64,000 nt of DNA, from NCBI GenBank assembly GCA_964364265.1, contig CAYILA010000004.1, positions 9,126-73,125 on the forward strand, written 5' to 3'. The stretch is from an uncultured Candidatus Saccharibacteria bacterium. Its GTDB lineage: Bacteria > Patescibacteriota > UBA1384 > XYA2-FULL-43-10 > 1-14-0-10-43-13. Of the stretch, positions 9,591 to 61,480 are shown in pieces (the stretch's first letter is position 1; every line of letters starts with the position of its first letter). The notes under the pieces were generated by a model. That model was not told the origin of the DNA, ran no database searches, and saw nothing but the letters and a program-made list of their open reading frames with translations. A program made the position numbers and the translations under genes.

Positions 9591-9603
9591 TAGTTTCCCA
9601 ATC

Positions 9604-12458: not shown

Positions 12459-12550
12459 TGTCATCCCGAGCCCCAAAGGGGGCCCTTTGGGCCGGGTCGA
12501 GGGATCTTTTAAAAGATTCCTCCGCTCCCTGCGGTTGGTCGGAATGACAG
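12459..12550. repeat. PE-1 palindromic element with nested GC hairpin (ccccaaagggggccctttggg)
   Basis: gtcatcccgag ... ggtcggaatgacag inverted termini with the family core. Confidence 0.7.
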
Positions 12551-13904: not shown

Positions 13905-14012
13905 TTACCTAACTCTTACCAAATTACAAATATGTCGAAAATACTAAATTACGAAAATACAAATGTTTTAGTAATTTCGTATTTTTGTTTAATTCGTACT
14001 TTCGTAGGGTTT
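13905..14012. promoter_or_regulatory. PE-3 leader element upstream of lepB
   Basis: tactaaattacgaaaatacaaatgttttagtaatttcgta ... attcgtactttcgtagggtt, near-identical to 9665-9716. Confidence 0.45.
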
Positions 14013-16635: not shown

Positions 16636-17928
16636 TTAGTGCTTTGCTTCCAGCCAGTTCTTGCCGTAGGCGACCTCCACTTCAAGAGGAACACAAAGCT
16701 TAACCGCCCCTTCCATCACCTCTTTAATCATTTTCGATACCGATTCGGCATCTTCTTCCGGCGCTTCCGCCACCAGTTCGTCATGAACAGTCAGAATCAA
16801 TCTCGGTCGTCGGCCTGCCTCGCCGGTGGGCGGGTCGTCGGTCGTCGGTCGTCGGTTAATTTCTTTATCCAATTCGATCATTGCCAGTTTCAATATCTCC
16901 GCCGCCGTGCCCTGGACCGGCGTATTGATCGCCATTCGCTCTCCGGCATTGGCCGTCTGCCAATTTTCCGATTTCAATTCGGCGATGTTGCGGCGGAAGC
17001 CGAACAGCGTCTCAACATAGCCGTCCTTGTCCGCCTTGGCCCGCATATTTTTGACATACCGGGCGATGCCGGTGTGGACATCGAAATATTTATCGATATA
17101 ATTTTGGGCATCCTGCCGGTTGATTCCCAGCGCCTGTGACAAACCGTATGAGGTCTGGCCGTATAAAACCCCGAAGTTAACTGTTTTGGCCGCCCTGCGT
17201 TGTTCTTTGGTCACCTTGTCGGCCGGGACGCCGAAAATCTCCGATGCTGTTTTCGAGTGAATGTCGACTCCGCTCTCAAACGCCTTCAACATCACCTCGT
17301 CTTGCGCCAGACAGGCCACGATTCTAAGCTCAATCTGCGAATAATCGGCCGAGATCAAAACCATTCTCTCCGGCGCGATAAATGCTTTTCTGATCTCGTC
17401 GCCAAGCTCACCCTTGATCGGAATATTTTGCAGATTGGGATTTTTGGATGTCATTCGGCCGGTCGAAGTTTCCTGGCCGTAAGTGGTGTGAATCCGGCCG
17501 TCTTTAGTTACCAAGGCCGGCAGAGGTTTTAAATATGTCGAGACCAATTTTGAAAGTTCGCGGTATTCCAAAACCGGTTCGATAATTTTGTGTTTGCTTT
17601 TTAATTTAGACAGTTCCGGCGCCGCCGTAGAAATCCCCGACTTTGTTTTTTTAAGGTCAAAAATGGGAAGCTTGAGTTTTTTGAATAAAAGTTCCGCCAT
17701 TTGGCTCGGAGAATTGATATTAAACTTTTCTCCCGCCGCCTTGTATATTTCCTTTTCCAGTTTCGATATTCTGATTTCGAGTCTCCGCTGGAGCTCGCTC
17801 AAAACTTTTCTATCGATTAATATCCCGGCGTTCTCCATGGCGCGCAAAACCGGCTCGACTTGTCTGTCGATCTCTCCCGCACTGATATTCGGGATTTTGA
17901 CGCCCTTTTCACGTAGATGTGACCACAT
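16636..17928 (-). CDS. polA: DNA polymerase I, polymerase domain only
   Basis: Pol A motifs (ISADYSQIELRI, RRAAKTVNFGVLYG, HDELV); carries an in-frame PPTGEAGRRPR insertion from a GC palindrome at 16800-16860. Confidence 0.85.
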   Translation of the reverse strand: MWSHLREKGVKIPNISAGEIDRQVEPVLRAMENAGILIDRKVLSELQRRLEIRISKLEKEIYKAAGEKFNINSPSQMAELLFKKLKLPIFDLKKTKSGISTAAPELSKLKSKHKIIEPVLEYRELSKLVSTYLKPLPALVTKDGRIHTTYGQETSTGRMTSKNPNLQNIPIKGELGDEIRKAFIAPERMVLISADYSQIELRIVACLAQDEVMLKAFESGVDIHSKTASEIFGVPADKVTKEQRRAAKTVNFGVLYGQTSYGLSQALGINRQDAQNYIDKYFDVHTGIARYVKNMRAKADKDGYVETLFGFRRNIAELKSENWQTANAGERMAINTPVQGTAAEILKLAMIELDKEINRRPTTDDPPTGEAGRRPRLILTVHDELVAEAPEEDAESVSKMIKEVMEGAVKLCVPLEVEVAYGKNWLEAKH

Positions 17929-18049
17929 AATTTTAGAATATTGATTTCAGATTGTAGAAGTTAGAATGAGATTAGAGATTAGCAATTAGCAATTAGATTC
18001 TATATTATACATTCATTCTAAAATCTAATATCTATCCTCTAAATTCTAG

Positions 18050-19144
18050 TTATAGCTCCAATCTTAATTGACTATCCTTCTTCTTCTGTTCCTCGGTTAT
18101 TTTCCGTTGTTCTTCCGTCCGCCGGCCGGCGGATCCGTCCTTTCGTCTTTCAGTTTCCTTCGTAAATCTTTCAAGCAACGATTTAAACTGCAATTCCTCA
18201 AACAACTTCCGCAGTTCCCCCCTATCATACTGCCCCCATTTGGCATCTGCAAGAGAAAAATCAATCGGCACATTGCGTTCAATCGTGGCCAGCATTTGGG
18301 ATTGAAATGCCTGATCCTTGTGTTCGATCAACAACCTTAATATGCGAGGCTTTATATCCATTTGCTCGGCAAGCTTATCGATTGCTTCATTGTTCGATTG
18401 TTCGATTGTTAAATCAGCAATTGAGCAATTGAGCAATTGAGCAATCAGCCCATAAAGCTTCTCCAGCGTATCAAATTTAAGAATAAGATCAGTTGCAGTT
18501 TTGGGACCTATTGAAGGAACCCCGGGGATATTGTCCGAGGGATCCCCGGCAAGGGCTTTTAAGTCGACGAAATCCTCCGGATCGAGATTGTAAACCTCTT
18601 TCAAGTGTTTATGATCAAATATCTCCGCCTCCGAAAAGCCGCGCTTTAACATTAAAACTTTGACATGACCGTTTAGAAGTTGATAAACATCCTTGTCGCC
18701 CGAGGCGATGTAAATCATCAATTCTTCCTCTTGACTTTCGCCTTTCGCCTTTCGCCTTTCGCCTTTTAGGCATTTCTCTACTATTGTGCCGAGAATGTCG
18801 TCCGCCTCATATCCCTCTAGAGATAAAACCGGAATCCCGAAGGCCGCAAGCATCTCTTTTACCCGAGGAATCTGATCATAGAGTTCCTGATCGGCTTTAA
18901 CCCGCTTTGCTTTATATTCTTTATATTCGACATGCCGGAATGTCGGGCCGGCCAAATCAAAAGCGGCCGCGATGTAGTCGGGATGAAGTTCTTCGAGCAC
19001 CTTAATCAGCGCCAGAGCAAAACCGTAGGTTACATTAGTTAGTTCGCCCTTTGAATTCGATAAATTCTTAGGCAAAGCATGATAAGCCCGATGGATGATG
19101 GCGTTTGAATCGAGCAGGACTAAAGTTTTCATAACAAGATCCAA
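18050..19144 (-). CDS. 5'-3' exonuclease (Pol I N-terminal FEN-like domain) as a separate ORF
   Basis: 5'-nuclease domain with conserved acidic residues and H3TH; in-frame tandem-repeat insertions (caattgagcaat x3; cgcctttcgccttt x3). Confidence 0.85.
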   Translation of the reverse strand: MDLVMKTLVLLDSNAIIHRAYHALPKNLSNSKGELTNVTYGFALALIKVLEELHPDYIAAAFDLAGPTFRHVEYKEYKAKRVKADQELYDQIPRVKEMLAAFGIPVLSLEGYEADDILGTIVEKCLKGERRKAKGESQEEELMIYIASGDKDVYQLLNGHVKVLMLKRGFSEAEIFDHKHLKEVYNLDPEDFVDLKALAGDPSDNIPGVPSIGPKTATDLILKFDTLEKLYGLIAQLLNCSIADLTIEQSNNEAIDKLAEQMDIKPRILRLLIEHKDQAFQSQMLATIERNVPIDFSLADAKWGQYDRGELRKLFEELQFKSLLERFTKETERRKDGSAGRRTEEQRKITEEQKKKDSQLRLEL

Positions 19145-20793: not shown

Positions 20794-22533
20794 CTATATA
20801 ACCTCGAACACTTCCCCTACCGCTTTCTGTAATTCGTCATCGCTGGCCGGCTTCGCATCAATCTTTTTCCCGTCCATAAGTTCGCACCCTATTATACACT
20901 TTAAACCGGTAACATCATTCCAAATTTTTTCTAAAATCTGGCGATTTTTCACCTCCGATATCCGATCCTTGTGGAATTTGAATTTCACGCCCAAAACAAT
21001 TTTTTCGTTGCTGACCGTCAATGGTTTGGCGTCGCGGAGCAGTGCCGCCAGCGAGTTATTTTCCTTTTTGGTGGCATCGATTACCTTCTGCCAAAGATCG
21101 CCTGTCATCTCAAAAACCGGCGCCGGTGCTAGATCAGAATTGTTCAATTGCCCCAAAGGGGACTCTTCGGGTCTCATTGCTGAATTGTTGTCAGTAACAT
21201 CAGATTGTTTGGCTCCCGATTTCTTTTCGCTGTCATTGCGAGCCGTAGGCGCGGCAATCTTTTCTTCAGTTATGATAGATTGCTTCGTCGTTTCACTTCT
21301 CGCAATGACATCTTCTTTTAGCTTCTCCTTCTTTGGTTCTTCGGTTCCTCGGTTCTTCGGTTCTTCGATTTTTGAATCTTCCTCTTTTTGTTTTTCCTTC
21401 CTGGGCTGTTCCGCGTCCTTGGAATCCTCCCTTGATACTTGATACTTGATACTTGATACTTCTATGTTCGTCAACTCCACCACCGCCATCTCCAACGGCA
21501 AAATCGGGTTTGAGAGATCGCGGAGCAATCTCCCGCTTCCGATGAAGGTATCAATTGCTTTTTTGACCGTCTCATAATCGCAGTCAGAGGCCAATTTTTT
21601 GATTCTCTCGGTCCGCTCTTTCGTTTCCTCGAACAAGACACTGCCTGAAATTTGGTAAAGAAGTATTTTTCGCAGTGCTTCAATTACTTCGCGGATAAAC
21701 TGACTCGGATCGACTCCCTGTTCGTACAATTTTGAAATGATCGAAAGTCCTTTTTTCTGCTCTTTTGAAATTATCGCCTCGATCAGATCGAGGGCGCTCT
21801 CGCCGAATGATAGTCCCAGGAGGTTTTCGGCATCCTCTTTACTGATCTTACCGCCAAAACCGGCGACCTGCTCGAACAAGACGACTGAATCGCGAAAACC
21901 GCCCGCCGCCGCCGTGGCGATAGCGTCAAGCGCTCCGTCGTCTATGCTGATTTTCTCGGCCCTGGCTATCATTTTCAAATTTTTTATAATGTCCTCCTTG
22001 CCGACCCGCTTAAAATCGTAGCGCTGGGTCCGGGAGATGATAGTCGAAGGCAGTTTATGAATTTCGGTCGTCGCCAGGATGAAGACGACATGATCCGGCG
22101 GCTCCTCCAGCGTTTTGAGCAAGGCATTGAATGCCCCCTTCGAGAGCATATGAACTTCGTCGATGATATAAATCTTTTTGGAGGCCGAGGTCGGCGCCAA
22201 GCGGGCTTTGTCGATGATATCGCGGATATTGTCGACTCCCGTATGGGAGGCGGCGTCAATTTCGATTACATCAAGGGCGCTTCCGACCGCAATGGCCAGG
22301 CATTGATCGCACTTGTCGCAGGGTTCTCCGACCGCCAAATCCAAATTTTGGCAGTTGATCGCCTTAGCCAGAAGTCGGGCAGTGGTCGTCTTGCCGGTTC
22401 CGCGCGGACCGGTTAAGAGAAAGGCATGGGAAAGCCGGCCTAACTTGATTGCCGCCAGCAGGGTTTTACTGATGTGATCCTGGCCGATCAGGTCGGAGAA
22501 CTTTTGAGGACGGTATTTTTGATAAAAAGCCAT
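20794..22533 (-). CDS. dnaX: DNA polymerase III gamma/tau subunit
   Basis: AAA+ clamp-loader N-terminus (LLTGPRGTGKTT); in-frame tandem repeats ggttcttcggttcctcgg and atacttgat x3. Confidence 0.9.
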   Translation of the reverse strand: MAFYQKYRPQKFSDLIGQDHISKTLLAAIKLGRLSHAFLLTGPRGTGKTTTARLLAKAINCQNLDLAVGEPCDKCDQCLAIAVGSALDVIEIDAASHTGVDNIRDIIDKARLAPTSASKKIYIIDEVHMLSKGAFNALLKTLEEPPDHVVFILATTEIHKLPSTIISRTQRYDFKRVGKEDIIKNLKMIARAEKISIDDGALDAIATAAAGGFRDSVVLFEQVAGFGGKISKEDAENLLGLSFGESALDLIEAIISKEQKKGLSIISKLYEQGVDPSQFIREVIEALRKILLYQISGSVLFEETKERTERIKKLASDCDYETVKKAIDTFIGSGRLLRDLSNPILPLEMAVVELTNIEVSSIKYQVSREDSKDAEQPRKEKQKEEDSKIEEPKNRGTEEPKKEKLKEDVIARSETTKQSIITEEKIAAPTARNDSEKKSGAKQSDVTDNNSAMRPEESPLGQLNNSDLAPAPVFEMTGDLWQKVIDATKKENNSLAALLRDAKPLTVSNEKIVLGVKFKFHKDRISEVKNRQILEKIWNDVTGLKCIIGCELMDGKKIDAKPASDDELQKAVGEVFEVI

Positions 22534-22670: not shown

Positions 22671-22909
22671 TCAATTGTTAGACATTAGTCAGTGTCCTAA
22701 CACTACCACAAACTTATATATTATTTTACGACTTTATATCAACAAAGAATCCACAGGGTTATAAACACTAGCGAATAAGCTACTATCAATAACCTTCTGC
22801 TCTTTGCTTACCTGGCCCGGGCCAAAGGCCTCCCTTCGGGAAAGGGCACCCTTTGGGTCTTACATGCTTACCTGCTTACTATATTTCCCCTTTTTTCCAC
22901 ACAAAACAA

Positions 22910-22957: not shown

Positions 22958-25375
22958 ATGACAAGAAAAGAGCTGGCGCGAGAAATCGCCCAAAAAAGCG
23001 GACTAAGCTACAACCAGGCCGAAAGTTTGGTTGTCGCTTTAGGCGATGTAATCAGAGAGTGCTTGGCCAAAGGCGACCGAGTCGTCTATTCTAATTTTGG
23101 CACTTTTTACACCGTCCACTACCCCTCAAAAGTGATCAACCACCCCAAATACGGGGCCCAAAAGAAGATAATAATGCTGCCGACCAATGTCGCTAAGTGG
23201 ATGCCCTCGGGAAACATCAAAAGCATGGTCGGTCAAGGCGAAGAAAGGGAGTCTGTGACTGCCCACGGTTTGAAGGGCGTCAAAAAGGCCGAACCGATTT
23301 CAAGCCCGAATCAGGAGTCAAATTTCAGTCAAAATTACTTCCGCAACGACCCGGAAAACTCAAATGATGAAAATAATAATCCCGACCTATCAAATACTGG
23401 CCGGATGACACCGGCATCCGAAGAACAACCAAAAACCAATGCCAATGTTTATGAAGAACTGATGAATGACGGCGGCCGCGAGGAAGCGACCTTTGACGGC
23501 GTAATCCGTCTACATGAGAGAAAACCGTTTTGGAAAAGAATCTTCCAAAAGGATTCCGAAACGACAGCCGACTCGGAGAGCCAGGGAATGGTCGGCTCCG
23601 GCATCTTCAATAAGGAAAACACCGAACTTCCCGATCACAATCCCTCCGCGCAACATCCGCCCGAACAACATACTTCAGCTTTTGCCAACCAACCTCATGA
23701 AGCGAAAGCTTACATCCAGCAACCGGCTTCCGGGCATACCGGGTTTGAATTTAGTCCCAAACCGGTTGATCCAACCGCTACAGCGGAACCAAAAGAACGA
23801 GATATGACTCCGTTCAAAGCGCCGGCCGGCCAGATTACCTATACCGATCTTTCCAGAAAAGTGGTGCCCAAAGAACTTCTCGCCAAAATTCCCGAGAAAA
23901 TCGCCCGCCAGTTTATGGCGGTGCCGGTCGAGGAAACTCCGACCGAGATGATTGTCGGCATGATCGATCCGGAGGATATTGAAGCGCGCGAATTAATAAA
24001 GAAATTAGTCCAAAAGACGGTTGTCCCGAAGCTGGCGACCGAGGAAGATGTCAACCACATTCTGGATCAATATCAGGGGCTGGAGTCCGAGGTCAAAGAG
24101 GCAATCGAGGAGGCGAAAGAAGAAGACGATCTGGTGATCAAGAAATCGGAGAATAGTAAAACCCTCTTTGATATCGCCGCCGACGACGCTCCGGCCGCCC
24201 GAATTGTCGGTTCGCTTCTGAAGCGGGCGATTCGCGATAAGGCCTCTGACATCCACATCGAACCGCTTGAAACCGAGATTCAGGTCCGGTTTCGAATTGA
24301 CGGCGTTTTGCAGAAGAAAATCACTCTGCCCAAGGATATCCTCTCGGCAGTCGTGTCGCGGGTCAAGATTATGTCAAACCTAAAAATCGACGAGCAACGG
24401 CTTCCCCAGGACGGTCGATTTTCAATCCATATGGATGAAAGGAAGGTTGATTTCCGTGTTTCAAGTATGCCGACCGCTTTCGGCGAAAAAGTTGTTATGA
24501 GAATATTGGATAAGATGACCGGTATTCTGACCGTCGAACAGCTCGGTCTGGAGGGCTCCGGCTTGGAGAAATTAAAAAACAATCTGGAGAAATCCCATGG
24601 CATGATTCTGGTGACCGGACCGACCGGTTCAGGCAAAACCACAACACTCTACGCCCTCATCGACCGACTCTTTGCCGAGGGAGTAAATATCGTAACCTTA
24701 GAGGATCCGATCGAATACCAGATTCCGGGTATCAATCAAAGCCAGGTCAATCCCGATATTAAATACACTTTTGCCAACGGCCTGCGCTCCATCGTCCGCC
24801 AGGACCCGGATATCATTATGATTGGCGAAATCCGCGACGGCGAGACGGCCGAGATGGCGGTCCAGTCGGCTCTGACCGGCCACATCGTCCTTTCTACGCT
24901 TCATACGAACGACGCCGCCGGCGCCTCCCCCCGACTGATCGATATGGGAGTCGAGCCGTTCCTGCTAACTTCATCCGCCAATGTGATTATCGGCCAAAGA
25001 TTGGCTCGAAAAATCTGTCCTGATTGTAAAGAACAGGTTACTTTGCCTGTGTCTGAAATTGAAAAGATTAAAGAGATTGTCAATAAAATGCCTGAAAAAG
25101 AGCGGACCGCAGTTTTAAGCAAGCCCCCCGTTTTCTATCACGGCAAGGGATGCAAAAGCTGTAACGATTCCGGCTATACCGGCCGGCTCGGTATCTTTGA
25201 GGCTCTGGAGATGACTGAAAAAGTCAAGGAGTCGATCTTAAAAAAAATATCATCCAGCCAAATCCAGGAACTGGCCATTTCGGAGGGAATGGTCACTATG
25301 ATCCAGGATGGCATAATCAAAGCCCTAAAGGGTATGACCTCAATCGATGAGGTCTGGAGAGTAACCAAGGACTAG
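22958..25375 (+). CDS. pilB: HU/IHF-like DNA-binding domain fused through a ~200-aa disordered linker to a type IV pilus assembly ATPase PilB/GspE
   Basis: Residues 1-92 resemble HU; the C-terminal part has a T2SSE N-domain, Walker A GPTGSGKTTT and a tetracysteine motif; one uninterrupted 805-aa frame. Confidence 0.8.
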   Translation: MTRKELAREIAQKSGLSYNQAESLVVALGDVIRECLAKGDRVVYSNFGTFYTVHYPSKVINHPKYGAQKKIIMLPTNVAKWMPSGNIKSMVGQGEERESVTAHGLKGVKKAEPISSPNQESNFSQNYFRNDPENSNDENNNPDLSNTGRMTPASEEQPKTNANVYEELMNDGGREEATFDGVIRLHERKPFWKRIFQKDSETTADSESQGMVGSGIFNKENTELPDHNPSAQHPPEQHTSAFANQPHEAKAYIQQPASGHTGFEFSPKPVDPTATAEPKERDMTPFKAPAGQITYTDLSRKVVPKELLAKIPEKIARQFMAVPVEETPTEMIVGMIDPEDIEARELIKKLVQKTVVPKLATEEDVNHILDQYQGLESEVKEAIEEAKEEDDLVIKKSENSKTLFDIAADDAPAARIVGSLLKRAIRDKASDIHIEPLETEIQVRFRIDGVLQKKITLPKDILSAVVSRVKIMSNLKIDEQRLPQDGRFSIHMDERKVDFRVSSMPTAFGEKVVMRILDKMTGILTVEQLGLEGSGLEKLKNNLEKSHGMILVTGPTGSGKTTTLYALIDRLFAEGVNIVTLEDPIEYQIPGINQSQVNPDIKYTFANGLRSIVRQDPDIIMIGEIRDGETAEMAVQSALTGHIVLSTLHTNDAAGASPRLIDMGVEPFLLTSSANVIIGQRLARKICPDCKEQVTLPVSEIEKIKEIVNKMPEKERTAVLSKPPVFYHGKGCKSCNDSGYTGRLGIFEALEMTEKVKESILKKISSSQIQELAISEGMVTMIQDGIIKALKGMTSIDEVWRVTKD

Positions 25376-31454: not shown

Positions 31455-31528
31455 TCCGAGATCGTCTAGCGGCAGGACAGCGGATTCTGGCTCCGCCAAC
31501 CTAGGTTCGAATCCTAGTCTCGGAACCA
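31455..31528 (+). tRNA. tRNA-Gln (anticodon CTG), CCA encoded
   Basis: Acceptor tccgaga/tctcgga with U1:A72, anticodon stem gcgga/tccgc with loop ttCTGgc, T-arm ctagg-ttcgaat-cctag. Confidence 0.85.
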
Positions 31529-31542: not shown

Positions 31543-31661
31543 TCTAATATCCTTTGATGCAGTCTAGCGGTCCGCCTGCCCTCCGGGCAGAGCGAGATCT
31601 CGCCCGAAGGGCGGACAGGACAGCGGATTCTGGCTCCGCCAACCTAGGTTCGAATCCTAGT
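31543..31661 (+). pseudogene. tRNA-Gln duplicate with a 43-nt palindromic insertion in the D-loop and a degenerate 5' acceptor strand
   Basis: From gtctagcgg onward identical to tRNA-Gln (31455-31528) except for the insert tccgcctgccctccgggcagagcgagatctcgcccgaagggcgg at 31561-31603; 5' strand tttgatg pairs poorly. Confidence 0.4.
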
Positions 31662-31698
31662 CTCGGAACCAAAAAAAACGAATACCCTCTCGGTAGTC
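31661..31698 (+). terminator. Rho-independent terminator after the tRNA cluster
   Basis: aaaaaaaacgaatacc-ctctc-ggtagtcgtttttt. Confidence 0.75.
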
Positions 31699-32445: not shown

Positions 32446-32871
32446 ATGAATAATACTGATAAAAATGATATGACCGTTTCCGAGCTTGCCCGGATAATGG
32501 ACAAAAAGTTTGACGGATTGACCGAGATTATGATCTCCGGTTTTGACCGTTTGGAAAAACGATCGGACGATATAGAGAGCGATGTAGAGATCATCAAATC
32601 CGATGTCGGAGTACTCAAGTCTGATGTTGGCACGCTCAAGTCTGATGTTGGCACGCTCAAGTCTGATGTTGGCACGCTCAAGTCTGATGTTGGCACGCTC
32701 AAGTCTAGTATGATAGATGTTCAATTAACTCAGAGAAAACATACTGAAACGCTTGCCGAACATTCAAAAATCCTTCACCGGATAGAAGGCGATGTAGAGA
32801 TGCTGATCGACCGCGACCTCAATCATGAAACGCGTATCGGAAGATTGGAAAAAATCGCCAAACCGATTTAA
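32446..32871 (+). CDS. Coiled-coil protein with 4 tandem 7-aa repeats (KSDVGTL) from a 21-nt DNA repeat
   Basis: caagtctgatgttggcacgct x4 at 32618-32701; heptad periodicity. Confidence 0.5.
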   Translation: MNNTDKNDMTVSELARIMDKKFDGLTEIMISGFDRLEKRSDDIESDVEIIKSDVGVLKSDVGTLKSDVGTLKSDVGTLKSDVGTLKSSMIDVQLTQRKHTETLAEHSKILHRIEGDVEMLIDRDLNHETRIGRLEKIAKPI

Positions 32872-32879: not shown

Positions 32880-32925
32880 CGAGCGAGGTCGCCACGGCGA
32901 CCGAATCGAGAACTCCTCGTCCACT
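32880..32925. repeat. ttgttcgagc-hairpin-tcgagaac element (family copies at 52140-52200 and 53950-54005)
   Basis: gttcgagcgaggtcgccacggcgaccgaatcgagaac. Confidence 0.5.
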
Positions 32926-33059
32926 GTCATTTCGAGTGATCCGCCAGCTGGCGGAGAACCGAGAAATCTTCTGATTAATGTGATCAAACAAAAAAGACCC
33001 CGTCATTCGACAGGGTCCTTTTGCTTCTTCCGTATAGCTTAACAAATTAAGCAATTCGG

Positions 33060-33415: not shown

Positions 33416-33626
33416 ATCGAGACAAAGCGACTTGGCGCGAATGTGCGCCAGATCAGCATGCTACGCGTCTATGCTTACTTGCCCCAAAGGGGACCCCTTG
33501 GGTCTTACCAGCTTACGCGCTTACAAGCTTTATTATGTTGTTAAAGAACTGATTGAACCCTGGAGGGCCCAATCCCACTCTCATCATTGATGCAGATATT
33601 ACCACATATCGCATCATTTGTCAACC

Positions 33627-38231: not shown

Positions 38232-38380
38232 ATTTCCTAACTCCTACGAAATTACGAATCTACCGAAAGTACGAATCTTACAAATACTGCAATAGGATCT
38301 TAATCATTCGTAATATTTGTAATTTCGAGCAATTCGTAGATTGGTAGTAGCGAATCTACGAAGTAGATTCGACGTGAACA
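38232..38380. promoter_or_regulatory. PE-3 leader element upstream of rplS
   Basis: cctaactcctacgaaattacgaat ... gaatctacgaagtagattcg. Confidence 0.45.
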
Positions 38381-38654: not shown

Positions 38655-38745
38655 AATTCTAATATCGAATATCTAAATCCGAAACAATTTTCAAAATTCG
38701 AATTTCTAATTTGTTTCGATATTCGGATTTCGAGTTTCGTATTTA
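38655..38745. repeat. PE-2 element; also encodes the C-terminus (ETRNPNIETN) of the methyltransferase ORF
   Basis: atctaaatccgaaacaattttcaaaattcgaatttctaatttgtttcgatattcggatttcg. Confidence 0.6.
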
Positions 38746-40250
38746 AGAAATACAATCTCTCTTTTTACGACTTGATAATCTCTGCCATAAATCAATGGCG
38801 GACGCTCTTCAATATATCCTAAACTTTTAATTTCGTCAACACTCTCCCAATACAAACTGTAGCGTTTATTTTCCGTTGTCTCGATGAGTGGAAATACGAT
38901 ACAGACCGCCTCAATCTTTTTATCCAACTTTTTGATATTTTTCAAGAAATTGATGTAAGTATCCTTCACTTTCCGGTACTCACCTGCGGCGGCGCTCTGT
39001 GAAGGCATAAACTTCTTTGGCTCACCCAAGTAAGGTTCCGTAACCAGAACCATATTAGAATCTAGATTTTTGCCATGCCTGCCGGCAGGCAGGATTTTAG
39101 AATTTAGAATATTAATAAGTTCAGATGAAGTTGCATCTTCCTTAAAAAATCCTAAATTCGTACTTCTAGAATCTAGCATCTTCTCTTTTAGCCATTCCAA
39201 ATTCTTTTTTGTGTCTGATACCGCCTTCTCACTGATATCAGAGCCGATTACATCGCACCACAGCATCGCGGCTTCCATTAAAATATTACCGGAACCGCAG
39301 AAGGGATCTACCACCGCACAACGGTGGAAATCCAAATCCCTAATATCTAAATCCGAAACAATTTTTGAATTTTCAAAATTCGAATTTTTGATTTCTTTAG
39401 GATTTAGGATTTCGGATTTCGGATTTGCGTATGCGAGTGCAATGTTAACCATTGCACGAGCTAATTTATGTGGCATCATTCCCGAATATTTGTCAAAAGC
39501 CGGTTTTTCGTAGTCTCGCTCTGACCATTCTTCCGCATCGCTCAAACCGACGAGAACCCCCGCTGCCACCCCCGGTGTGGCAGCGGGGGTGTCGAACAAT
39601 CCTATCTCGATGCCTTTCCCGACAAGGTCGTTTTTAAGGGAAACGATGGATGAAAGAGCGTCCTCTTGACGAGATTCAATAAATCTTGCGGGGTGAGCGC
39701 CTTTTAACAAACGTTTTACCTCCAACCCCAAAGTATATATTTCACTCTTTTTAGCTGCGCCGAAATATTGGGAGATTCCAAAATTAATCTTACCGGTCCG
39801 CCCCATCTTCTCACGCTTAATTATGTCAGCTATTGCTATAGCCAATCCATGACTTGTCATCCCGACCGTTCCTCCTGTCATCCCGACCGAAGTGGAGGGA
39901 TCTTTTGATAGGAGACGTCGTCCCGAGCTTGCCGAGGGATTCCTCGGCTTCTTTTCATTTCGCTCGGAATGACAATTAATGAGACGGAATATTTTTATAG
40001 TGCCGCCAAGTATTTCGGAGAGCTTCGCCACTTCATCAGCTTCAATATTTTCTATGTTGATGACGGCAACATTTCCCGTTACTATGGGTTTATCAAAACA
40101 AAAACCAAGACGGCCCAAAGTCGCCTCCAACTCGACGAGCGCAATCTCTTTTTCTCGTCCCAAAACAAAAGCATATGTTCTATAGGTTTGGCTATTGTCC
40201 ATAATCGTATAATCATACCAGAAACACTTTATCCTGTCACGAGTAATCAA
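38706..40250 (-). CDS. Putative THUMP-type RNA (guanine-N2/adenine-N6) methyltransferase carrying four in-frame repeat-element insertions
   Basis: SAM motif VVDPFCGSGN; PE-1 x2 (39855-39974), PE-2 (39336-39428), GC palindrome (39068-39100) and a terminal PE-2 all read through in frame. Confidence 0.55.
   Translation of the reverse strand: MITRDRIKCFWYDYTIMDNSQTYRTYAFVLGREKEIALVELEATLGRLGFCFDKPIVTGNVAVINIENIEADEVAKLSEILGGTIKIFRLINCHSERNEKKPRNPSASSGRRLLSKDPSTSVGMTGGTVGMTSHGLAIAIADIIKREKMGRTGKINFGISQYFGAAKKSEIYTLGLEVKRLLKGAHPARFIESRQEDALSSIVSLKNDLVGKGIEIGLFDTPAATPGVAAGVLVGLSDAEEWSERDYEKPAFDKYSGMMPHKLARAMVNIALAYANPKSEILNPKEIKNSNFENSKIVSDLDIRDLDFHRCAVVDPFCGSGNILMEAAMLWCDVIGSDISEKAVSDTKKNLEWLKEKMLDSRSTNLGFFKEDATSSELINILNSKILPAGRHGKNLDSNMVLVTEPYLGEPKKFMPSQSAAAGEYRKVKDTYINFLKNIKKLDKKIEAVCIVFPLIETTENKRYSLYWESVDEIKSLGYIEERPPLIYGRDYQVVKREIVFLKYETRNPNIETN
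39336..39428. repeat. PE-2 element inside the methyltransferase CDS, in frame
   Basis: Encodes NPKSEILNPKEIKNSNFENSKIVSDL. Confidence 0.7.
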
Positions 40251-44124: not shown

Positions 44125-44548
44125 TTCCCTCCCCTAAATTAGGGGAGGATAGGTGGGGTACTATGAATAAATATCATTTTAATAACTCAGACATTAAAAT
44201 AATTAGACAAGTATTACGAAGAAATATGCCTCAACCGGAGGTGATCCTCTGGAATAGGATACGGGGCAAACAGTTGGGATATAAATTCAGAAGACAGTTT
44301 AGCATTATTAATTACATAATCGATTTTTATTGCCCGGAAAAACATCTTGCAATTGAAATTGATGGAGAATCTCATTTCCGACCAAGAAATATTGAATGCG
44401 ATAATATTAGAGACAATAACCTGAGAACAATTGGGATTAAAGTTTTAAGATTTACAAACATTGAGATTAAAGACAACATGGATGGGGTGATAACAGCTAT
44501 ACTTTCAGAGCTCAATACCCCCTCTTACTCCCCCTAATCTAGGGGAAG
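44113..44548. mobile_element. Hairpin A / hairpin B bounded element carrying a DUF559 gene
   Basis: Hairpin A cctcccctaaattaggggagg at 44118-44140 and hairpin B cttactccccctaatctaggggaag at 44520-44545 match the empty pair at 1117-1207. Confidence 0.5.
44163..44537 (+). CDS. DUF559 endonuclease-like protein (Vsr / restriction-endonuclease-like fold)
   Basis: QLGYKFRRQFSIINYIIDFYCPEKHLAIEIDGESH ... GIKVLRFTNIEI is the canonical DUF559 core. Confidence 0.8.
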   Translation: MNKYHFNNSDIKIIRQVLRRNMPQPEVILWNRIRGKQLGYKFRRQFSIINYIIDFYCPEKHLAIEIDGESHFRPRNIECDNIRDNNLRTIGIKVLRFTNIEIKDNMDGVITAILSELNTPSYSP

Positions 44549-52047: not shown

Positions 52048-52270
52048 CGAGACCTCCTCTCAAGGGCGCGTCCAGTCGAAATGATAGTACATTATGGCTC
52101 TCAAATTAGTCAACAAAAAAGCTGGGTGACCGCAAGGTTAAAAGGCTCTTTTCCTATTGATAGTTCTCGACCCCGCCTTGGCGGGGCTCGAACAATAATG
52201 AAGCTGGATTCCCGCTGGAGTTTATCCCGTACTCCGATACGGGGCGGGAATGACTCGACAAAATATCGCC

Positions 52271-53903: not shown

Positions 53904-53908
53904 ATAGT

Positions 53909-53965
53909 CTCCTAACTCCTACTAAATTACGAATTTATTCAAAATTACGAAATTACGAATTATTT
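53909..53965. promoter_or_regulatory. PE-3 leader element upstream of trxA
   Basis: cctaactcctactaaattacgaatttattcaaaattacgaaattacgaat. Confidence 0.45.
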
Positions 53966-54247
53966 ATTGTTCGAGCCCCGCCAAGGCGGGGTCGAGAACT
54001 ATCTCTAATATGATCTCGACATTACATGCCTACCGATAGGCAGACCTGCCTGCGGCAGGCAGGTTCGAAGAATAAGTAATAGATATTTTAACAATAGATT
54101 GGAAACAATACAATACAAAAAGTTATCAACAACAAAACTTAAACCAACATGTAAAATAAATTTATATCCTCTAAAATTGGCTTCTGCTCTAATCAATTAA
54201 AAAACTATCTTTTGTGTTTGCAAAAACAAGTTGTCGCGGTAATAACT

Positions 54248-57430: not shown

Positions 57431-60076
57431 TTATTTCGGCCACTTTGCGATCATAATCGATTCCGATAGTTTCGGATAAATCTGGCGCAAATCCTGCCAG
57501 ACAGCTTCGGTTACAAACGGCATGAATGGGTGAAGCATAATTAGAGTTTCTGAAAGAACTTTCATTAAGATTTTCTTCGTATTTGTGATCACCTCAATAG
57601 ATTCATTGTCATTCGGTTTTCGGTTTTCGGTTACGAGACCCGTTTCGGTTACGTCGGACGTTTTACGTGACCGCTCGACGATACGGACTTCGCCTGCCTC
57701 GCCGGTAGGCGGGTTACCGTTACCGCATGACGGTTGTAGCTGTGCCTTCGATGCTTCGATGTAAACATCGGCAAAGCTGTGCCAGAAGTACTCGTACAGC
57801 TTCTCACCCGCAAGCGAAAATTTATATTCATCGAGTAAGCGTGTTACTTCATTTTTGATCTCTTCATGCTCTTTCAAGATTGCTTTGTCGGCATCTGTCA
57901 ACCCGGGGACAGTCCCCGAGGGGGACAGTCCCCTTGCAATCCTTGATTCTCCAATGTCACCGCTCTGTAAGTCACCGTCTGAAACTCGCAGGATCACATA
58001 GCGCGAGGCGTTCCATATTTTATTCGAGAAATTTCGATATCCCTTGATTTTCGCCTCGCCAATGGGAATATCCTGGCCGGGCGTTGAGCCCACCACAAGT
58101 GCCATACGCATGGCGTCCGTACCGTATTTGGGTATTAAATCAAGAGGATCAAGGACATTGCCCAAAGATTTGCTCATCTTGCGGTTCTGCTCATCGCGCA
58201 CTAAACCATGGAGATAAACAGTCTCAAAGGGCGCTTTACCTGTAAATTCCAGTCCAAACATTATCATTCTAGCTACCCAGAAGAAGAGGATGTCGTAGCC
58301 GGTCTCCATCACACTCGTCGGATAGAAATATTGATAATCGCAATTAGTTATTCCCGACGCATAGGAGAATGGATGACTATTGCAATTTTCTTCGCTGTCA
58401 TCCTCGGGCTTGACCCGGGGATCTTTCGAAAGATTCCCGATCTGGTCGGGAATGACATCGCTGGACTGAGGCCAGCCAAGAGTTGAGAACGGCCAAAGAG
58501 CAGAGGAGAACCAGGTATCAAGCACATCCTCGTCCTGAACCCAGCCATCGCCTTCCGGCGGTTCAACGCCGACATAGATCTCGCTGTCGCTCGACAAATC
58601 CGAATCTCTAATATCTAAACCTACCTGTCCGGTAGGCAGGTCCGAAACAATTTTTGAATTTTCAAAATTCGAATTTCTAATTTCTTTAGGATTTAGGATT
58701 TCGGATTTCGGATTTCCTGCCTGTCTGTACCAAACCGGTATCTGATGTCCCCACCAGAGCTGACGCGAAACACACCAGTCGCGGATATTATCCATCCACT
58801 GGTAATACACTTTATCGAACCTGTTTGGAATTATTTTAATCTCACCGCTCTCAACCGCTTCTTTCGCCTTGTCGGCCAACGGCCGCATCTTTACAAACCA
58901 CTGTTTGGATGGAATCGGCTCAATCGATCCCCCACACCTATAACACTTGGATAAGTTATTCGTAATCTCCTGCTCCTTTTCAAGCAGTCCCTGGCTCTTC
59001 AAGTATTCAACCAATTTCTCGCGTGCCTCCGACACTTTTATACCGGTATATTTCCCGGCTTCATCCGTCATCTTGCCGTATTCATCAATAACTTTGATGA
59101 CAGGCAAACCGTTATCCTCGGCCATTTTCCAATCGGCGAATGAGTGCGCCGGCGTCAAACCGACCGCGCCTGTTCCGAATTCCTTATCTATCGATCGATT
59201 GGCGATAATTTTAATAGTCCTTTTGACTCCATCAATATCAACTTCATATGATTTACCCACAAATTCCTGATATCGCCGGTCATCCGGGTTTACGGCCACG
59301 CCGGTGTCGCCCAATTTTGTTTCGGGACGGGTGGTGGCGATGGTTACGGGAAAATTTTTATCGTATTTGAAGTAATATAATTTAGCGTTTTGTTCCTCGT
59401 ATTCCACCTCATCATCGGAAATTGCCGTCTGGCAACGCGAACACCAATTCACTACCCGCAACCCTCGATAGATGAGGCCTTTTTCGTATAGCTGGACGAA
59501 AGCTTCGCGCACGGCGCGGTTTAAGCCCTCATCCAATGTAAAGCGCTCTCTTGACCAATCGCAAGACGCTCCGAGGCGCTTTATCTGCTCGGTGATGATA
59601 CCTCCGTACCGCTCCTTCCACTCCCAAACTTTTTCGACAAATTTCTCCCGCCCAAGATCGTGCCTATTGATCCCCTGTTTCCGTAATTCTTTATCAACCA
59701 CTGTTTGAGTGGCAATACCGGCATGATCCGTGCCTGGCAGCCACAGAGTCGGCTCGCCTTTCAAACGATGATATCGAGTCAAAATATCTTCCAAGGTGAC
59801 AAACATGGCGTGACCCATATGCAATTTACCTGTAACATTCGGCGGCGGCATTGAAATCACAAAGGGCTTGCCGTCTTTGTCTCGATCATAGCTGAAGGAA
59901 CAACCACCAACCTTGTCATCCTCGGGCTTGACCCGGGGATCTTTTGCAACAAGATTCCCGCTTTCGCGGGAATGACAATAAGAAGTCTCCGGTTTAAAAT
60001 AACCTTTTTCTTCCCATTGTTTATAGAGTTCGGTTTCAAAATTTTGCGGTTCATATGCCTTTGGTATGTTTTTCAT
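57431..60076 (-). CDS. valS: Valyl-tRNA synthetase with three in-frame repeat-element insertions
   Basis: HIGH-class motif PPPNVTGKLHMGHA and KMSKS; PE-1 at 59914-59977 and 58405-58470; PE-2 with a nested GC palindrome at 58598-58716. Confidence 0.95.
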   Translation of the reverse strand: MKNIPKAYEPQNFETELYKQWEEKGYFKPETSYCHSRESGNLVAKDPRVKPEDDKVGGCSFSYDRDKDGKPFVISMPPPNVTGKLHMGHAMFVTLEDILTRYHRLKGEPTLWLPGTDHAGIATQTVVDKELRKQGINRHDLGREKFVEKVWEWKERYGGIITEQIKRLGASCDWSRERFTLDEGLNRAVREAFVQLYEKGLIYRGLRVVNWCSRCQTAISDDEVEYEEQNAKLYYFKYDKNFPVTIATTRPETKLGDTGVAVNPDDRRYQEFVGKSYEVDIDGVKRTIKIIANRSIDKEFGTGAVGLTPAHSFADWKMAEDNGLPVIKVIDEYGKMTDEAGKYTGIKVSEAREKLVEYLKSQGLLEKEQEITNNLSKCYRCGGSIEPIPSKQWFVKMRPLADKAKEAVESGEIKIIPNRFDKVYYQWMDNIRDWCVSRQLWWGHQIPVWYRQAGNPKSEILNPKEIRNSNFENSKIVSDLPTGQVGLDIRDSDLSSDSEIYVGVEPPEGDGWVQDEDVLDTWFSSALWPFSTLGWPQSSDVIPDQIGNLSKDPRVKPEDDSEENCNSHPFSYASGITNCDYQYFYPTSVMETGYDILFFWVARMIMFGLEFTGKAPFETVYLHGLVRDEQNRKMSKSLGNVLDPLDLIPKYGTDAMRMALVVGSTPGQDIPIGEAKIKGYRNFSNKIWNASRYVILRVSDGDLQSGDIGESRIARGLSPSGTVPGLTDADKAILKEHEEIKNEVTRLLDEYKFSLAGEKLYEYFWHSFADVYIEASKAQLQPSCGNGNPPTGEAGEVRIVERSRKTSDVTETGLVTENRKPNDNESIEVITNTKKILMKVLSETLIMLHPFMPFVTEAVWQDLRQIYPKLSESIMIAKWPK
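58598..58716. repeat. PE-2 element inside valS, in frame, with a nested GC palindrome
   Basis: Encodes NPKSEILNPKEIRNSNFENSKIVSDL then PTGQVG. Confidence 0.7.
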
Positions 60077-60178: not shown

Positions 60179-61480
60179 CTAAAGCTCGGCGTTTGAATCA
60201 ATATTTATCTCGTTCCACTTGGCAATATCGTCTCTTTTGATATGGTAATAGGCCGCGATTCCAATCATGGCGGCATTGTCGCCGCAGAGGGAAAGCGGGG
60301 GAATCAAGAGTCTTTTTCCTGATTGTTTGAAAACCGCCTCATCAAGCGTTTTACGCAATTTCTCGTTTGCCGACACACCGCCGGCCAATACAAAGGTATT
60401 TGGCTTCAATTTATCATACGCCTTCATACTTTTAGACACCAGGACATCGACGACCGCGTCTTCAAAAGCGGCCGAGATCTCTTGTTTTTTATCCTCATCT
60501 AAATATTTTGAATCAATCACTTCCCGAAGCACCGCTGTTTTAAGACCGGAGAAGGAGAAATTAAAGTTGTTCTCCTTTAATAATGGCCGTGGGAAAATGA
60601 TTGTGCCTGAAATGTTTTTCTGTCTGAATATCATCGCTTTCTTAGATATTTTCGGTCCGCCCGGATAGCCCAATTTCAGCAGCTTTGCCACTTTATCAAA
60701 TGCCTCGCCGGCGGCATCATCAAGAGTTTCCCCGATTACTTGGTACTTTCCCTCACTTTTTGCGTATATCAAAGATGTATGTCCACCCGATACCACCAAT
60801 GCAAGTAGCGGATATTGATAATTTTCCATACATTCATATATTTGCCTTTCGACTTTTGCCTTTTGTCTTTCGGCACAAAGTGCCGAAAAGATGTGTCCCT
60901 CAATGTGATTTATCGGAATAACCGGTAAATCTTTCGCGTAGGCGAGTGACTTTGCCGCATTGAAACCGACTAATAATGATCCGATCAGCCCCGGACCGTT
61001 TGTTACAGCAATGTGGGTTAAATCACTAAATAAATCCATGGCAGACGGCTTACGGTTCACGGTAACGATGCCCGTATCGGTCGCCGTTATTCGTTTTCCG
61101 GCCTGCCTGTCGGCAGACATGGCCGTATACCGCTCACCGCTAGACGATACGGGTTTCGTAACCCTTAAACGATTACCGAGTTCCTGTGTTTCTCTGGCTG
61201 TTTCTAGGGCTTCTTGTATCACCGGCATTATTGCCTCCATATGAGCTCTGCTGGCCACTTCCGGTACAACCCCGCCGGTTTTGGCATGCAGATCGATTTG
61301 TGAGGATACTATGTTCGATAGAATAACCGGACGATTGCCTACCGACGACAGACTACCGCTTGATTTTCGTTCTTGTCCTGTTGTCTGTCGTCCGTCGACT
61401 GTTGTCTCTGTAATCACGGCCGCCGCCGTTTCATCGCAAGAACTTTCGATCGCAAGAATTTTTATTGTTTGTTCCTTCAT
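60179..61480 (-). CDS. tsaD: tRNA N6-adenosine threonylcarbamoyltransferase TsaD (Kae1/Gcp family) with low-complexity insertions
   Basis: ASKHD/ACTIN fold with metal-binding His pair (HIEGH); about 90 extra residues versus typical TsaD, including a palindrome-derived segment at 61090-61120. Confidence 0.9.
   Translation of the reverse strand: MKEQTIKILAIESSCDETAAAVITETTVDGRQTTGQERKSSGSLSSVGNRPVILSNIVSSQIDLHAKTGGVVPEVASRAHMEAIMPVIQEALETARETQELGNRLRVTKPVSSSGERYTAMSADRQAGKRITATDTGIVTVNRKPSAMDLFSDLTHIAVTNGPGLIGSLLVGFNAAKSLAYAKDLPVIPINHIEGHIFSALCAERQKAKVERQIYECMENYQYPLLALVVSGGHTSLIYAKSEGKYQVIGETLDDAAGEAFDKVAKLLKLGYPGGPKISKKAMIFRQKNISGTIIFPRPLLKENNFNFSFSGLKTAVLREVIDSKYLDEDKKQEISAAFEDAVVDVLVSKSMKAYDKLKPNTFVLAGGVSANEKLRKTLDEAVFKQSGKRLLIPPLSLCGDNAAMIGIAAYYHIKRDDIAKWNEINIDSNAEL

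Follow-up and report, generated by a model that had tools for sequence, protein, structure and literature searches.

Nested GC-rich mini-palindromes in the repeats and housekeeping genes of a groundwater Patescibacteria genome

Introduction

Very small palindromic repeats lie inside larger repeats in a 64-kb window of bacterial DNA (the whole stretch analysed here, taken from contig CAYILA010000004.1). The window holds at least three families of GC-rich mini-palindromes, P1, P2 and P3, which we call guests; we refer to three larger repeats, PE-1, PE-2 and PE-3, as hosts. Among described systems, the guests are best compared with the small dispersed repeats SDR1-8 (SDRs) of the Nostocaceae. These are reportedly 21-27 nt long, occur in tandem heptamer arrays or in mini-transposons, are in some cases nested within themselves and insert precisely. 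Their stems are said to covary, and we know of no transposase for them. SDRs are reported to be confined to one cyanobacterial subgroup (Nostocaceae). The mobile GC clusters of yeast mitochondria and the double-hairpin elements of fungal mitochondria are also short GC-rich palindromes. They invade AT-rich DNA, sometimes coding DNA, in tandem or nested arrangements, and duplicated targets have been reported for the GC clusters. Larger palindromes of this kind are the Rickettsia palindromic elements (RPEs). Those of the RPE-1 type are said to be ~100-150 nt long, to lie in frame in essential genes and to be tolerated as surface peptides.

Repetitive extragenic palindromes (REPs) form a further group of short repeats. 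The palindromes of the REP/REPIN-RAYT system (REP doublets and REP-associated tyrosine transposases) and of bacterial interspersed mosaic elements (BIMEs) are believed to move as single-stranded hairpins, with no duplication of the target (Bertels and Rainey 2011, PMC3116915; Ton-Hoang et al. 2012). CGTC-tagged REPs are characterised by an unpaired CGTC tag (often TGTC or CCTC), a stem of 8-9 bp starting with A/T, a loop of 4-5 nt and a 3′ tail which fits CCA (Di Nocera et al. 2013, PMC3733652). They are mostly head-to-head dimers with the tags outside, and the intragenic units often lie in replication/repair and tRNA synthetase genes. This superfamily includes Neisseria dRS3 and Rickettsia RPE-4 and RPE-6; a dedicated transposase is not known for it (PMC3733652).

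Our preferred reading, held with some reserve, is that P1, P2 and P3 are probably very small non-autonomous insertion elements which target loops and slippage-prone DNA, as the cyanobacterial SDRs do. P1 (19-22 nt) and P2 (20-23 nt) resemble the SDRs in size and in context (arrays and REP loops, with nesting of P1 in P1), whereas P3 (14 nt) falls below the SDR range. The confinement to one clade is not shared, since P1 is found in the candidate phyla radiation (CPR), Bacteroidota, Planctomycetes, Proteobacteria and others.

Filled and empty sites in PE-2 and PE-3

P1 is a GC-rich palindrome of 19-22 nt with the ideal form CCTGCCTG-loop-CAGGCAGG. A preliminary description of this DNA had quoted several such palindromes and read them as nested inside larger repeats. 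All of the quoted palindromes are present, within a few bases of where they had been placed, and their nesting is borne out by alignment: two of the three PE-2 copies lack 21 nt, and PE-1 hairpins with empty loops exist.

PE-2 is an AT-rich palindrome of 103-123 nt whose arms are AAATCCG/AAATCCT heptamer arrays (DNA fold z about -3.2 to -3.3). Alignment of its three copies places the extra 21 nt, CCTACCTGTCCGGTAGGCAGG, in the valS copy only, between CTAAA and TCCGAAAC, and the flanks are not duplicated. Since P1 is absent from two of the three copies and the difference is a clean 21 nt, P1 does not belong to the PE-2 consensus. The copies in valS and in the methyltransferase gene share 97% identity along the 75 nt of the right arm; in the left arm, 2 of 24 positions differ (counted on the alignment). 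In this near-identical pair only one member holds P1, and the insertion of P1 is therefore later than the duplication of PE-2. Of the six reading frames of PE-2 only two are open. Both in-gene copies use the same frame, which is what selection for translatability would produce. The PE-2 gap pattern had 0 matches in the genome collection, which does not include the source genome. A PE-2 peptide profile run against the protein database recovered only tiny spurious open reading frames (ORFs) with heptamer translations of the NPKSEILNPKQIQNSK type and not the proteins of the window itself.

The two PE-3 copies lie in valS and tsaD. They match each other in blastn (E = 5e-5 to 3e-6), the left arm is common to both, and both contain the 17-mer ACCGCT[C/A]GACGATACGG (0.08 expected). 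P1 is located downstream of this 17-mer in valS and upstream of it in tsaD. Its presence on opposite sides implies two independent placements and places P1 outside the PE-3 consensus. The preliminary description took the GC palindromes to be secondary to the consensus of their hosts and named the opposite finding as its own refutation. Its view holds for PE-2 and PE-3 and fails for one PE-1 subfamily, in which P2 is now part of the consensus.

PE-1, a TGTC-tagged REP with inserts in its loops

PE-1 consists of head-to-head double hairpins of the form TGTCAT...ATGACA, with at least 13 copies in the window. All of these units begin with TGTC and end with GACA, and the TGTC tag is unpaired. Stem and loop are those of the CGTC-tagged REPs in five perfect examples, including TGTC-ATTCCCGC-GAAA-GCGGGAAT and TGTC-ATTCCCGA-CCAGA-TCGGGAAT; the remaining units are imperfect or have loops enlarged by nested inserts. 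The TGTCAT...ATGACA dimers occupy 13 sites and occur in frame in dnaE, dnaX, valS (two), mnmA, gdh and the methyltransferase gene. The tails found in the window (CTT, CCC, CTC, CC) do not fit CCA, a minor feature of the family. A hairpin printed from Neisseria gonorrhoeae (PMC7593972) is identical to GTCATTCCCGCGAAAGCGGGAATC of the window. PE-1 had been put forward as a new element. Judged by these sequence features it is instead a member of the known CGTC/TGTC-tagged REP superfamily, in a phylum not previously listed for it.

In alignment, the empty-loop hairpins at 11972 and 52935 (reverse strand) read TGTCATCCCGA followed by (C/G)CGAAGT(G/C)GAGGGATC. At 12459 and 7273 the hairpin is longer by 21 nucleotides, corresponding to P2, at the empty-loop position, and the hairpin at 32925 carries P3 in the same loop. 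The P2 copies previously cited at 7290 and 12468 are those found at 7285-7305 and 12471-12491. Other PE-1 hairpins with near-identical arms lack P2. In the two filled copies P2 has the same position and a similar divergence (18/22), which points to a single entry of P2 and later copying of the composite.

The architecture of PE-1 brings in the strongest rival explanation. In this alternative, guests and hosts are mosaic modules, comparable to the BIMEs of E. coli and the Neisseria intergenic mosaic elements (NIMEs), which are shuffled by recombination or gene conversion, and nesting reflects exchange or loss by deletion. PE-1 is clearly modular, as its left hairpin, spacer and right hairpin have been recombined among copies, and the two P2-bearing copies hold P2 at one position. 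Furthermore, the 97% identity of distant PE-2 copies could reflect concerted evolution, and REPs regularly associated with other palindromes, as well as mosaic Neisseria regions, have been reported (Di Nocera et al. 2013, PMC3733652). However, gene conversion needs flanking homology, and the flanks of P1 are unrelated to one another (PE-2, PE-3, TCGTCGG and TTTAGAA arrays, unique intergenic DNA and, elsewhere, tRNA fragments). The difference between PE-2 copies is exactly the palindrome; no flanking repeats accompany it, which makes slippage deletion unlikely. In PE-3 the positions of P1 differ between the two copies. Shuffling of modules is thus an unlikely explanation for the guests, albeit one to be taken seriously.

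P1, P2 and P3 in the window

Searched with up to three mismatches, the P1 19-mer has two loci in the window against 0.00 expected in shuffles, and a scan with the 21-mer consensus matched at 58620, likewise against 0.00. A loose regular expression for P1-like hairpins gave 24 matches against ~8 in simulations; it was too permissive, and the stricter scans are relied on here. Rfam returned nothing at gathering score, the best match being proV RNA with 23.9 bits against the 88.5 needed. Target-site duplication was considered as a feature of P1 and rejected: a TCGTCGG 7-nt repeat flanks the polA copy and CGTCGTC flanks P1 in the uppP gene of a related genome, L007, and the other copies have no duplicated flanks (L-numbers such as L005 or L053 denote loci retrieved from other genomes, metagenomes or viral contigs).

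P2 has the sequence CCCCAAAGGGGNCCCYTTGGG and a length of 20-23 nt. A scan of the window yielded six matches at four loci, with 0.01 expected. Including degraded copies, P2 is found at 7285, 12471, 21151, 22815, 33482, 36342, 45149 and 55341; the copies at 21151 (dnaX) and 55341 (mnmA) had not been listed before. The copy formerly placed at 22790 exists, although it actually spans 22815-22859 and carries its own 22-nt internal hairpin insert. As read from the sequence, this locus comprises three nesting levels: an insert in P2, which itself lies in an array.

P3 is a 14-nt palindrome, CCGCCAGCTGGCGG, with six recurrences across five unrelated P1-bearing loci. The palindrome in a partial tRNA-Gln copy had been counted as P1. 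This assignment is doubtful, as the insert is a 45-nt compound palindrome whose outer arms resemble P3 and which is only loosely P1-like. The partial copy (31562-31671) starts 34 nt after the intact tRNA-Gln (31455-31528). The last 56 nt of this copy are 100% identical to the intact tRNA, and a matching 5′ acceptor strand is lacking. A tRNA fragment with a mini-palindrome beside an intact tRNA is likewise seen in other CPR genomes (L053, L033, L064).

P1 and P2 in other genomes

P1 was searched for as CCTGCCTG-N(0-3)-CGGCAGGCAGG in one genome per GTDB species (596 Gb), which gave at least 120 matches. The perfect 20-mer CCTGCCTGCCGGCAGGCAGG has at least 78 copies, whereas ~0.5 would be expected by chance (our own estimate; fewer than 10 even at 65% GC throughout). 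Among the matches listed, the loci have a median GC of 0.43 and belong to many CPR lineages, Bacteroidota (isolates and megabase-scale contigs), Omnitrophota, Planctomycetes, Gamma- and Deltaproteobacteria, Acidobacteriota, Ignavibacteriota, Nitrospira and Chloroflexia. The same list shows a variable P1 centre (CGG, CCGG, TCCGG and others) and four recurrent contexts. P1 lies in tandem arrays (L084, L094, L074, L058, L107, L118, L121), in the loops of TGTC-tagged hairpins (L040, L083, L111, L054, L037, L105), in the centre of another P1 (L038, L042, L051, L070, L128) and in tRNA D-arms (L033, L053, L064). When P1 is deleted from L053, the call of a tRNA-Val is restored, beside an intact tRNA-Val; this parallels the partial tRNA-Gln of the window.

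P2 is present in at least 146 copies in JGI metagenomes, in arrays and REP loops. In L132 it cleanly interrupts the GAAA loop of a canonical REP hairpin, and a variant, P2-T, has the conserved flanks TTG...ACAA. Outside the window, long open frames contain about one third of the P1 and P2 copies. Among genomes related to that of the window, L007 has five P1 copies in 15.7 kb and L005 has none. The UppP gene of L007 contains two tandem P1 copies in frame with CGTCGTC heptamers between them. Such lineage-specific copy numbers fit selfish spread.

P1 also occurs in 78 viral contig stretches, and phages might spread the palindromes or be invaded by them. Some IMG/VR contigs hold several copies each (L249, L261, L290/L299/L302, L307), with at least six in the 29.5-kb contig IMGVR_UViG_3300037242_000417. 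A text search of the literature for the P1 string found no paper, and one on CPR together with palindromic elements or miniature inverted-repeat transposable elements found nothing relevant.

The occurrence of P1 in so many settings bears on a further alternative, namely that the palindromes arise locally by slippage or template switching in tandem arrays (quasi-palindrome formation) and that the families are convergent products. The strong association with tandem arrays, the CCTG/CAGG tetramer periodicity in the interior of P1 and its variable centre, as expected of an imprecise junction, would all suit such an origin. The array units are, however, unrelated (TCGTCGG, TTTAGAA, GCTTACTT, GAGTGAT and others), and none could template CCTGCCTG. 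At no window copy can the P1 arms be derived from the flanks, the same 20-mer is found in REP loops and in unique DNA, and its identity across phyla is far above chance. Local origin is accordingly a very improbable source of these families.

In-frame insertions in housekeeping proteins

ValRS comprises 881 aa here and 717-726 aa in insertion-free relatives, and the short orthologues lack both PE-2 and PE-3. An alignment of ValRS sequences locates four insertion hot spots, after FKPE, PVWY[KR], STLGWP and SKxQL. Other species carry different repeat-derived peptides at the same four spots: LPAGRHG, LTDRQAGE and DLPAGEAG derive from P1, and VIPAKAGIQ and VIARSETTKQS from REP hairpins. PE-2 combines the features of the RPE-1 type, being a palindrome of 103-123 nt which lies in frame in valS and in the methyltransferase gene and is absent from the short ValRS orthologues. 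TsaD has 433 aa here and 399-585 aa in four syntenic relatives, the region of the PE-3 insertion being variable among orthologues. In polA, P1 together with the TCGTCGG array adds 11 residues that Bst Pol I lacks, immediately ahead of motif C. The P1 copies described earlier in polA, valS, tsaD and the methyltransferase gene all lie in uninterrupted ORFs, and translation gave the quoted peptides. The in-gene copies are insertions. Repeat insertions stacked at a few permissive loops would explain the long and variable housekeeping proteins of this CPR lineage.

Two of these proteins contain further palindromes. The N-terminal insertion of TsaD (TVDGRQTTGQERKSSGSLSSVGN; window 61330-61400) is encoded by a palindrome with 12-bp arms, CCGACGACAGAC / GTCTGTCGTCGG, built from a GTCGTCG-type heptamer which also flanks P1 in polA and in the UppP gene of L007. 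The methyltransferase ORF, which holds PE-1, PE-2 and P1, also has in frame a 35-nt near-perfect palindrome with a 14-bp stem (ACCCCCGCTGCCAC-CCCCGGT-GTGGCAGCGGGGGT; 39556-39590); about one third of its 514-aa protein appears to be repeat-derived.

Alternatively, the palindromes might be functional hairpins under selection, such as terminators, mRNA-stabilising stem-loops, protein-binding sites or signals of the DNA-uptake type, and their identity across phyla would reflect a conserved binding partner. REPs are generally thought to act as RNA elements, the sequences of P1 and P2 are nearly invariant across phyla, and several P2 copies directly follow a gene or separate convergent genes (45149, 36342, 12471). 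Set against this, many copies reside inside ORFs (valS, tsaD, polA, dnaX, mnmA, methyltransferase), where a terminator would be harmful, and others in divergent promoter regions (22815) and inside other repeats. No T-run follows the hairpins in the window flanks, as judged by eye. In addition, the P1 and P2 copies of the window are mostly degraded by unpaired substitutions, and copy number ranges from 0 to 5 among close relatives. We consider a selected function improbable as the cause of this distribution.

Source genome and features of the window

The window has a GC content of ~46%. An exact look-up found its TsaD protein on Hainich groundwater metagenome contigs (well H51, 0.1 µm fraction; ENA ERZ1292623, ERZ1292627 and ERZ1292643) and in a Logan assembly. 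The ValRS of the window has at best 62-65% identity to any other protein, and the nearest named relatives are Patescibacteria and Candidatus Berkelbacteria metagenome-assembled genomes. The source is a Hainich groundwater CPR/Patescibacteria genome near Berkelbacteria. Pfam annotation of the ORFs agrees with the gene names assigned previously; dnaE, dnaX and mnmA are also among the annotated genes. Coordinates are collected in Table 1.

Metagenomic assemblies can contain errors at palindromes, which are able to cause chimeric joins, and the repeats could in principle be an assembly or sequencing artefact. The tsaD copy of P1 is nevertheless identical in four independent assemblies and the valS copies are identical in a second one, which excludes an assembly artefact. 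Furthermore, every host ORF stays in frame, and isolate genomes and megabase-scale contigs of other phyla contain the same palindromes. The probability of an artefact is negligible.

Table 1. Coordinates of the genes, host repeats and guest palindromes in the window
Feature	Position	Strand	Context	Remarks
valS	57431-60076	minus		Pfam
tsaD	60179-61480	minus		Pfam
polA, polymerase-only	16636-17928	minus		Pfam
Methyltransferase gene	38706-40250	minus		Pfam
PE-1 dimer	12459-12549			P2 (12471-12491) fills loop of first hairpin
PE-1, same subfamily	7273-7371			Degraded P2 (7285-7305) at same loop position; 86% identical to 12459-12549
PE-1 dimer, empty loop in first hairpin	11972-12045			TGTCATCCCGA / CCGAAGTGGAGGGATC; reference empty site for P2
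TGTC-type REP hairpin GTCATTCCCGC...GCGGGAATCC	52206-52254	minus		28-nt insert with own hairpin replaces canonical GAAA loop
PE-2, filled (P1)	58594-58716	minus	valS	Translated NPKSEILNPKEIRNSNFENSKIVSDL...DIRDSDL; fold z = -3.2
PE-2, empty (no P1)	39325-39427	minus	Methyltransferase ORF	Reading frame as in valS copy
PE-2, divergent, no P1	38651-38767		3′ end of methyltransferase ORF	
PE-3	57600-57745	minus	valS	TTTTCGG/GTTACCG-type array element; C-terminal ValRS insertion of ~45 aa
PE-3	61036-61185	minus	tsaD	Inverted repeat with P1 in central loop
P1 CCTACCTGTCCGGTAGGCAGG	58620-58640		Left arm of valS PE-2 copy	valS peptide PTGQVG(L)
P1 CCTGCCTCGCCGGTAGGCGGG	57693-57713		Within valS PE-3 copy, downstream of ACCGCTCGACGATACGG motif	Peptide PPTGEAG
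P1 CCTGCCTGTCGGCAGACATGG	61102-61122		Within tsaD PE-3 copy, upstream of ACCGCTAGACGATACGG motif	Peptide SADRQAG
P1	16814-16834		In polA TCGTCGG heptamer array 16803-16855 (-)	Peptides PPTGEAG / array RRPTTDDPPTGEAGRRPR
P1 CATGCCTGCCGGCAGGCAGG	39074-39093		Methyltransferase ORF, in TTTAGAA-type AT-rich array	Peptide LPAGRHG
P1	37694-37712		Intergenic, downstream of rplS	One mismatch to quoted 19-mer
P1, perfect 19 nt (exact match)	54045-54063		Intergenic	Abutted by short P1-like hairpin 54029-54043
P2, free-standing	33482-33502		Embedded in GCTTACTT octamer array	
P2	45149-45169		In CAGCATAT array, between convergent genes	
P2	21151-21171		In frame in dnaX	PE-1 dimer nearby (21231-21310); CTTGATA array 21426-21460
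P2, interrupted	22815-22859		In GCTTACCT array, divergent promoter region	Split by 22-nt hairpin-bearing insert
P3 CCGCCAGCTGGCGG	32941-32954		Loop of TGTC-tagged REP hairpin 32925-32968	
Compound palindrome, 45 nt	31571-31615		D-loop of partial tRNA-Gln copy 31562-31671	Outer arms TCCGCC...GGCGGA

Proposed insertion process and order of events

The proposed process distinguishes three kinds of host: head-to-head TGTC-tagged REP dimers (PE-1), AT-rich palindromes made of heptamer arrays (PE-2, PE-3) and simple heptamer or octamer arrays. The guests, sequence-defined GC mini-palindromes of 14-22 nt, would be very small non-autonomous insertion elements. A complete guest copy would be written into a new site without target-site duplication and without flanking homology; filled and empty sites exist side by side in the window, and sister copies of a host hold the guest at different positions. 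The preferred sites would be loopable or single-stranded DNA, namely REP hairpin loops, the loop of another mini-palindrome, slippage-prone tandem arrays and tRNA D-arms. The same guests occur in the same contexts of other phyla; insertion would act on single-stranded or looped DNA. Selection would tolerate in-gene copies solely where the frame is open and the protein loop permissive, so that the ORFs of valS, tsaD, polA, dnaX and mnmA stay intact and lengthen; the frames are indeed open. A host with its guest would then be copied as a unit. The driver may be an activity encoded elsewhere, or host replication and repair.

Several results weigh against mobile guests. The mobility of the guests is deduced from comparisons of paralogous copies; no presence/absence polymorphism of guests was seen between orthologues, the nearest ValRS relatives being only 62-65% identical. 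The two P2 copies in PE-1 represent one event seen twice, not two events. A transposase domain was detected by Pfam in none of the annotated ORFs of at least 100 aa in the 64-kb window, and the same search identified no mobilising enzyme for P1, P2 or P3. No conserved target or tag was found for P1, apart from a weak A at -1 and T/C at +1, and there is no target duplication. Flanking direct repeats of at least 7 nt accompany 20% of the P1 sites and 5% of the control positions, and flanking inverted repeats 14% and 6%, respectively. These enrichments speak in favour of the proposed process but may partly reflect intergenic location, since the control positions are mostly coding. A check for covariation of the P1 stem found three fully compensated variants, which resemble unrelated hairpins, in a set of loci preselected for perfect stems. 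The P1 family is thus defined by its sequence; compensatory change in the stems is not convincing and no structural requirement is demonstrated. Lastly, the viral P1 matches lie mostly in GC-rich contigs, where chance matches are likelier, and some of them, mostly in such contigs and in long open frames, may be chance or coding repeats.

Both orders of events were found: P1 entered PE-2 after PE-2 had been duplicated, and P2 entered PE-1 before the composite was duplicated. The families therefore overlapped in activity and do not represent separate eras. The preliminary description had argued that nesting implies movement of the families at different times, an argument which gives the order of events at a single locus and is too strong as a general inference. 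Its proposal of recurrent activity is supported by the density of P1, 0-5 copies per 16-22 kb among related genomes, and by the varying insert content of ValRS and TsaD orthologues. Nesting as such is commonplace among mosaic bacterial repeats. What is new is the occurrence in CPR, along with guests stacked in in-frame elements of essential genes and the near-identity of the mini-palindromes across phyla.

A more far-reaching reading is tentative, and we regard it as rather doubtful. It would make P1, P2 and, probably, P3 ultra-small mobile palindromes that are pan-bacterial, carried by phages and near-invariant across phyla. They would enter single-stranded loops and leave the target unduplicated; REP loops, their own loop, arrays, tRNA D-arms and permissive loops of essential proteins would be the sites. 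If true, copying would depend on a conserved mechanism that has so far escaped recognition and that lies in a widespread trans-acting enzyme or in replication or repair. Such palindromes would also provide a general source of the lineage-specific insertions which lengthen CPR housekeeping proteins.

The same exact palindromes in distant phyla and in phage contigs are hard to explain by vertical descent and suggest horizontal spread or a universal sequence-specific process. As discrete insertions aimed at loops and arrays, elements of 19-22 nt offer a testable handle on a mechanism without a known transposase, which is likewise the situation of the CGTC-tagged REPs. Cultivable carriers such as Winogradskyella echinorum KCTC 22026 and Flagellimonas yonaguniensis allow experiments.

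Other repeats and genes of the window

Tandem octamer/heptamer arrays of the AAATTACG type (family D6) are located at 9595-9647, 13905-13957, 38233-38285 and 53908-53960. On the minus strand they adjoin the start codons of pnp, lepB, rplS and trx and continue into the Shine-Dalgarno region (..GTAGGAG..). AT-rich arrays of a similar kind (TAGGATT/TAGAAAT) stand in front of dnaB, dnaX, the methyltransferase gene and dnaE. It appears that the genome as a whole tends to have arrays in its 5′ leaders. Six tandem 21-nt units (GATGTTGGCACGCTCAAGTCT) at 32581-32706 lie inside a small coiled-coil-like ORF (32446-32871); their period of 21 nt equals three heptamers, seven codons and the length of the clean P1 and P2 inserts.

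Two hairpins of a further family, CCTCCCCTAAATTAGGGGAGG (44128) and CTCCCCCTAATCTAGGGGAAG (44528), enclose a DUF559 (Vsr-like endonuclease) gene at 44163-44537 (region 44128-44548). The same hairpin family occurs at five other sites (1120, 11844, 33321, 33390, 43808); dnaE holds one of these copies in frame. Direct repeats of ~76 nt with 72% identity (4576-4651, 5260-5334), which start with GGTTAGAT arrays, lie on either side of a gene (4636-5157) of the ‘23S rRNA intervening sequence protein’ family, and gene and repeats together look like a small cassette. Homologues of this protein have a different syntenic position in the relatives L007 and L008.

Pol I is split (16636-19144) into a polymerase-domain-only ORF of 430 aa and a separate 5′-3′ exonuclease ORF of 364 aa; Pfam detected the 3′-5′ exonuclease domain in neither. 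The exonuclease ORF carries an in-frame GCAATTGA octamer array (18409-18453). In the type IV pilus/type II secretion system (T2SS) ATPase ORF (22958-25375, 805 aa), an N-terminal HU-type DNA-binding domain (PF00216) is fused to MshEN and T2SSE, an unusual fusion.

Comparison with known systems

PE-1 shares with the CGTC-tagged REPs the unpaired TGTC tag, an 8-bp stem starting with AT, a loop of 4-5 nt, the head-to-head dimers and sites in replication and tRNA synthetase genes. In contrast, CPR are not among the reported hosts of that superfamily, and the PE-1 tail is not CCA. Whereas the REP loops of the window receive other mini-palindromes, the reverse, REPs inside other palindromes, has been described (PMC3733652).

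Like the RPE-1 elements of Rickettsia, PE-2 and PE-3 are in-frame palindromic elements (in valS, tsaD and the methyltransferase gene). Their composition, with arms made of heptamer arrays, suggests no sequence relationship, and unlike the RPE-1 elements they carry nested guests. The hosts differ as well: PE-2 and PE-3 belong to a free-living or episymbiotic groundwater CPR bacterium, the RPEs to an intracellular alphaproteobacterium.

P1, P2 and P3 resemble the palindromes of the REP/REPIN-RAYT system and BIMEs in being short, dispersed, high in copy number and arranged in mosaics (Bertels and Rainey 2011, PMC3116915; Ton-Hoang et al. 2012). REPs are mostly extragenic, however, and P1-P3 lack the GTAG tag, which was found neither in the consensus sequences CCTGCCTGCCGGCAGGCAGG (P1) and CCCCAAAGGGGTCCCTTTGGG (P2) nor in their flanks. 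Pfam annotation of the 64-kb window revealed no RAYT (Y1 transposase) gene. The mitochondrial GC clusters and double-hairpin elements differ from P1-P3 in being organellar and in having different sequences.

The likeness to the SDRs extends to small size (P3 excepted), arrays and larger repeats as hosts, precise insertion, self-nesting (P1) and the lack of a known transposase. Unlike SDRs, P1 and P2 extend over many phyla and also occur in viral contigs, and the P1 stems do not covary convincingly. P1, P2 and P3 thus seem to work like SDRs, to which we liken them by description and not by sequence, and we do not file them as members of that group.

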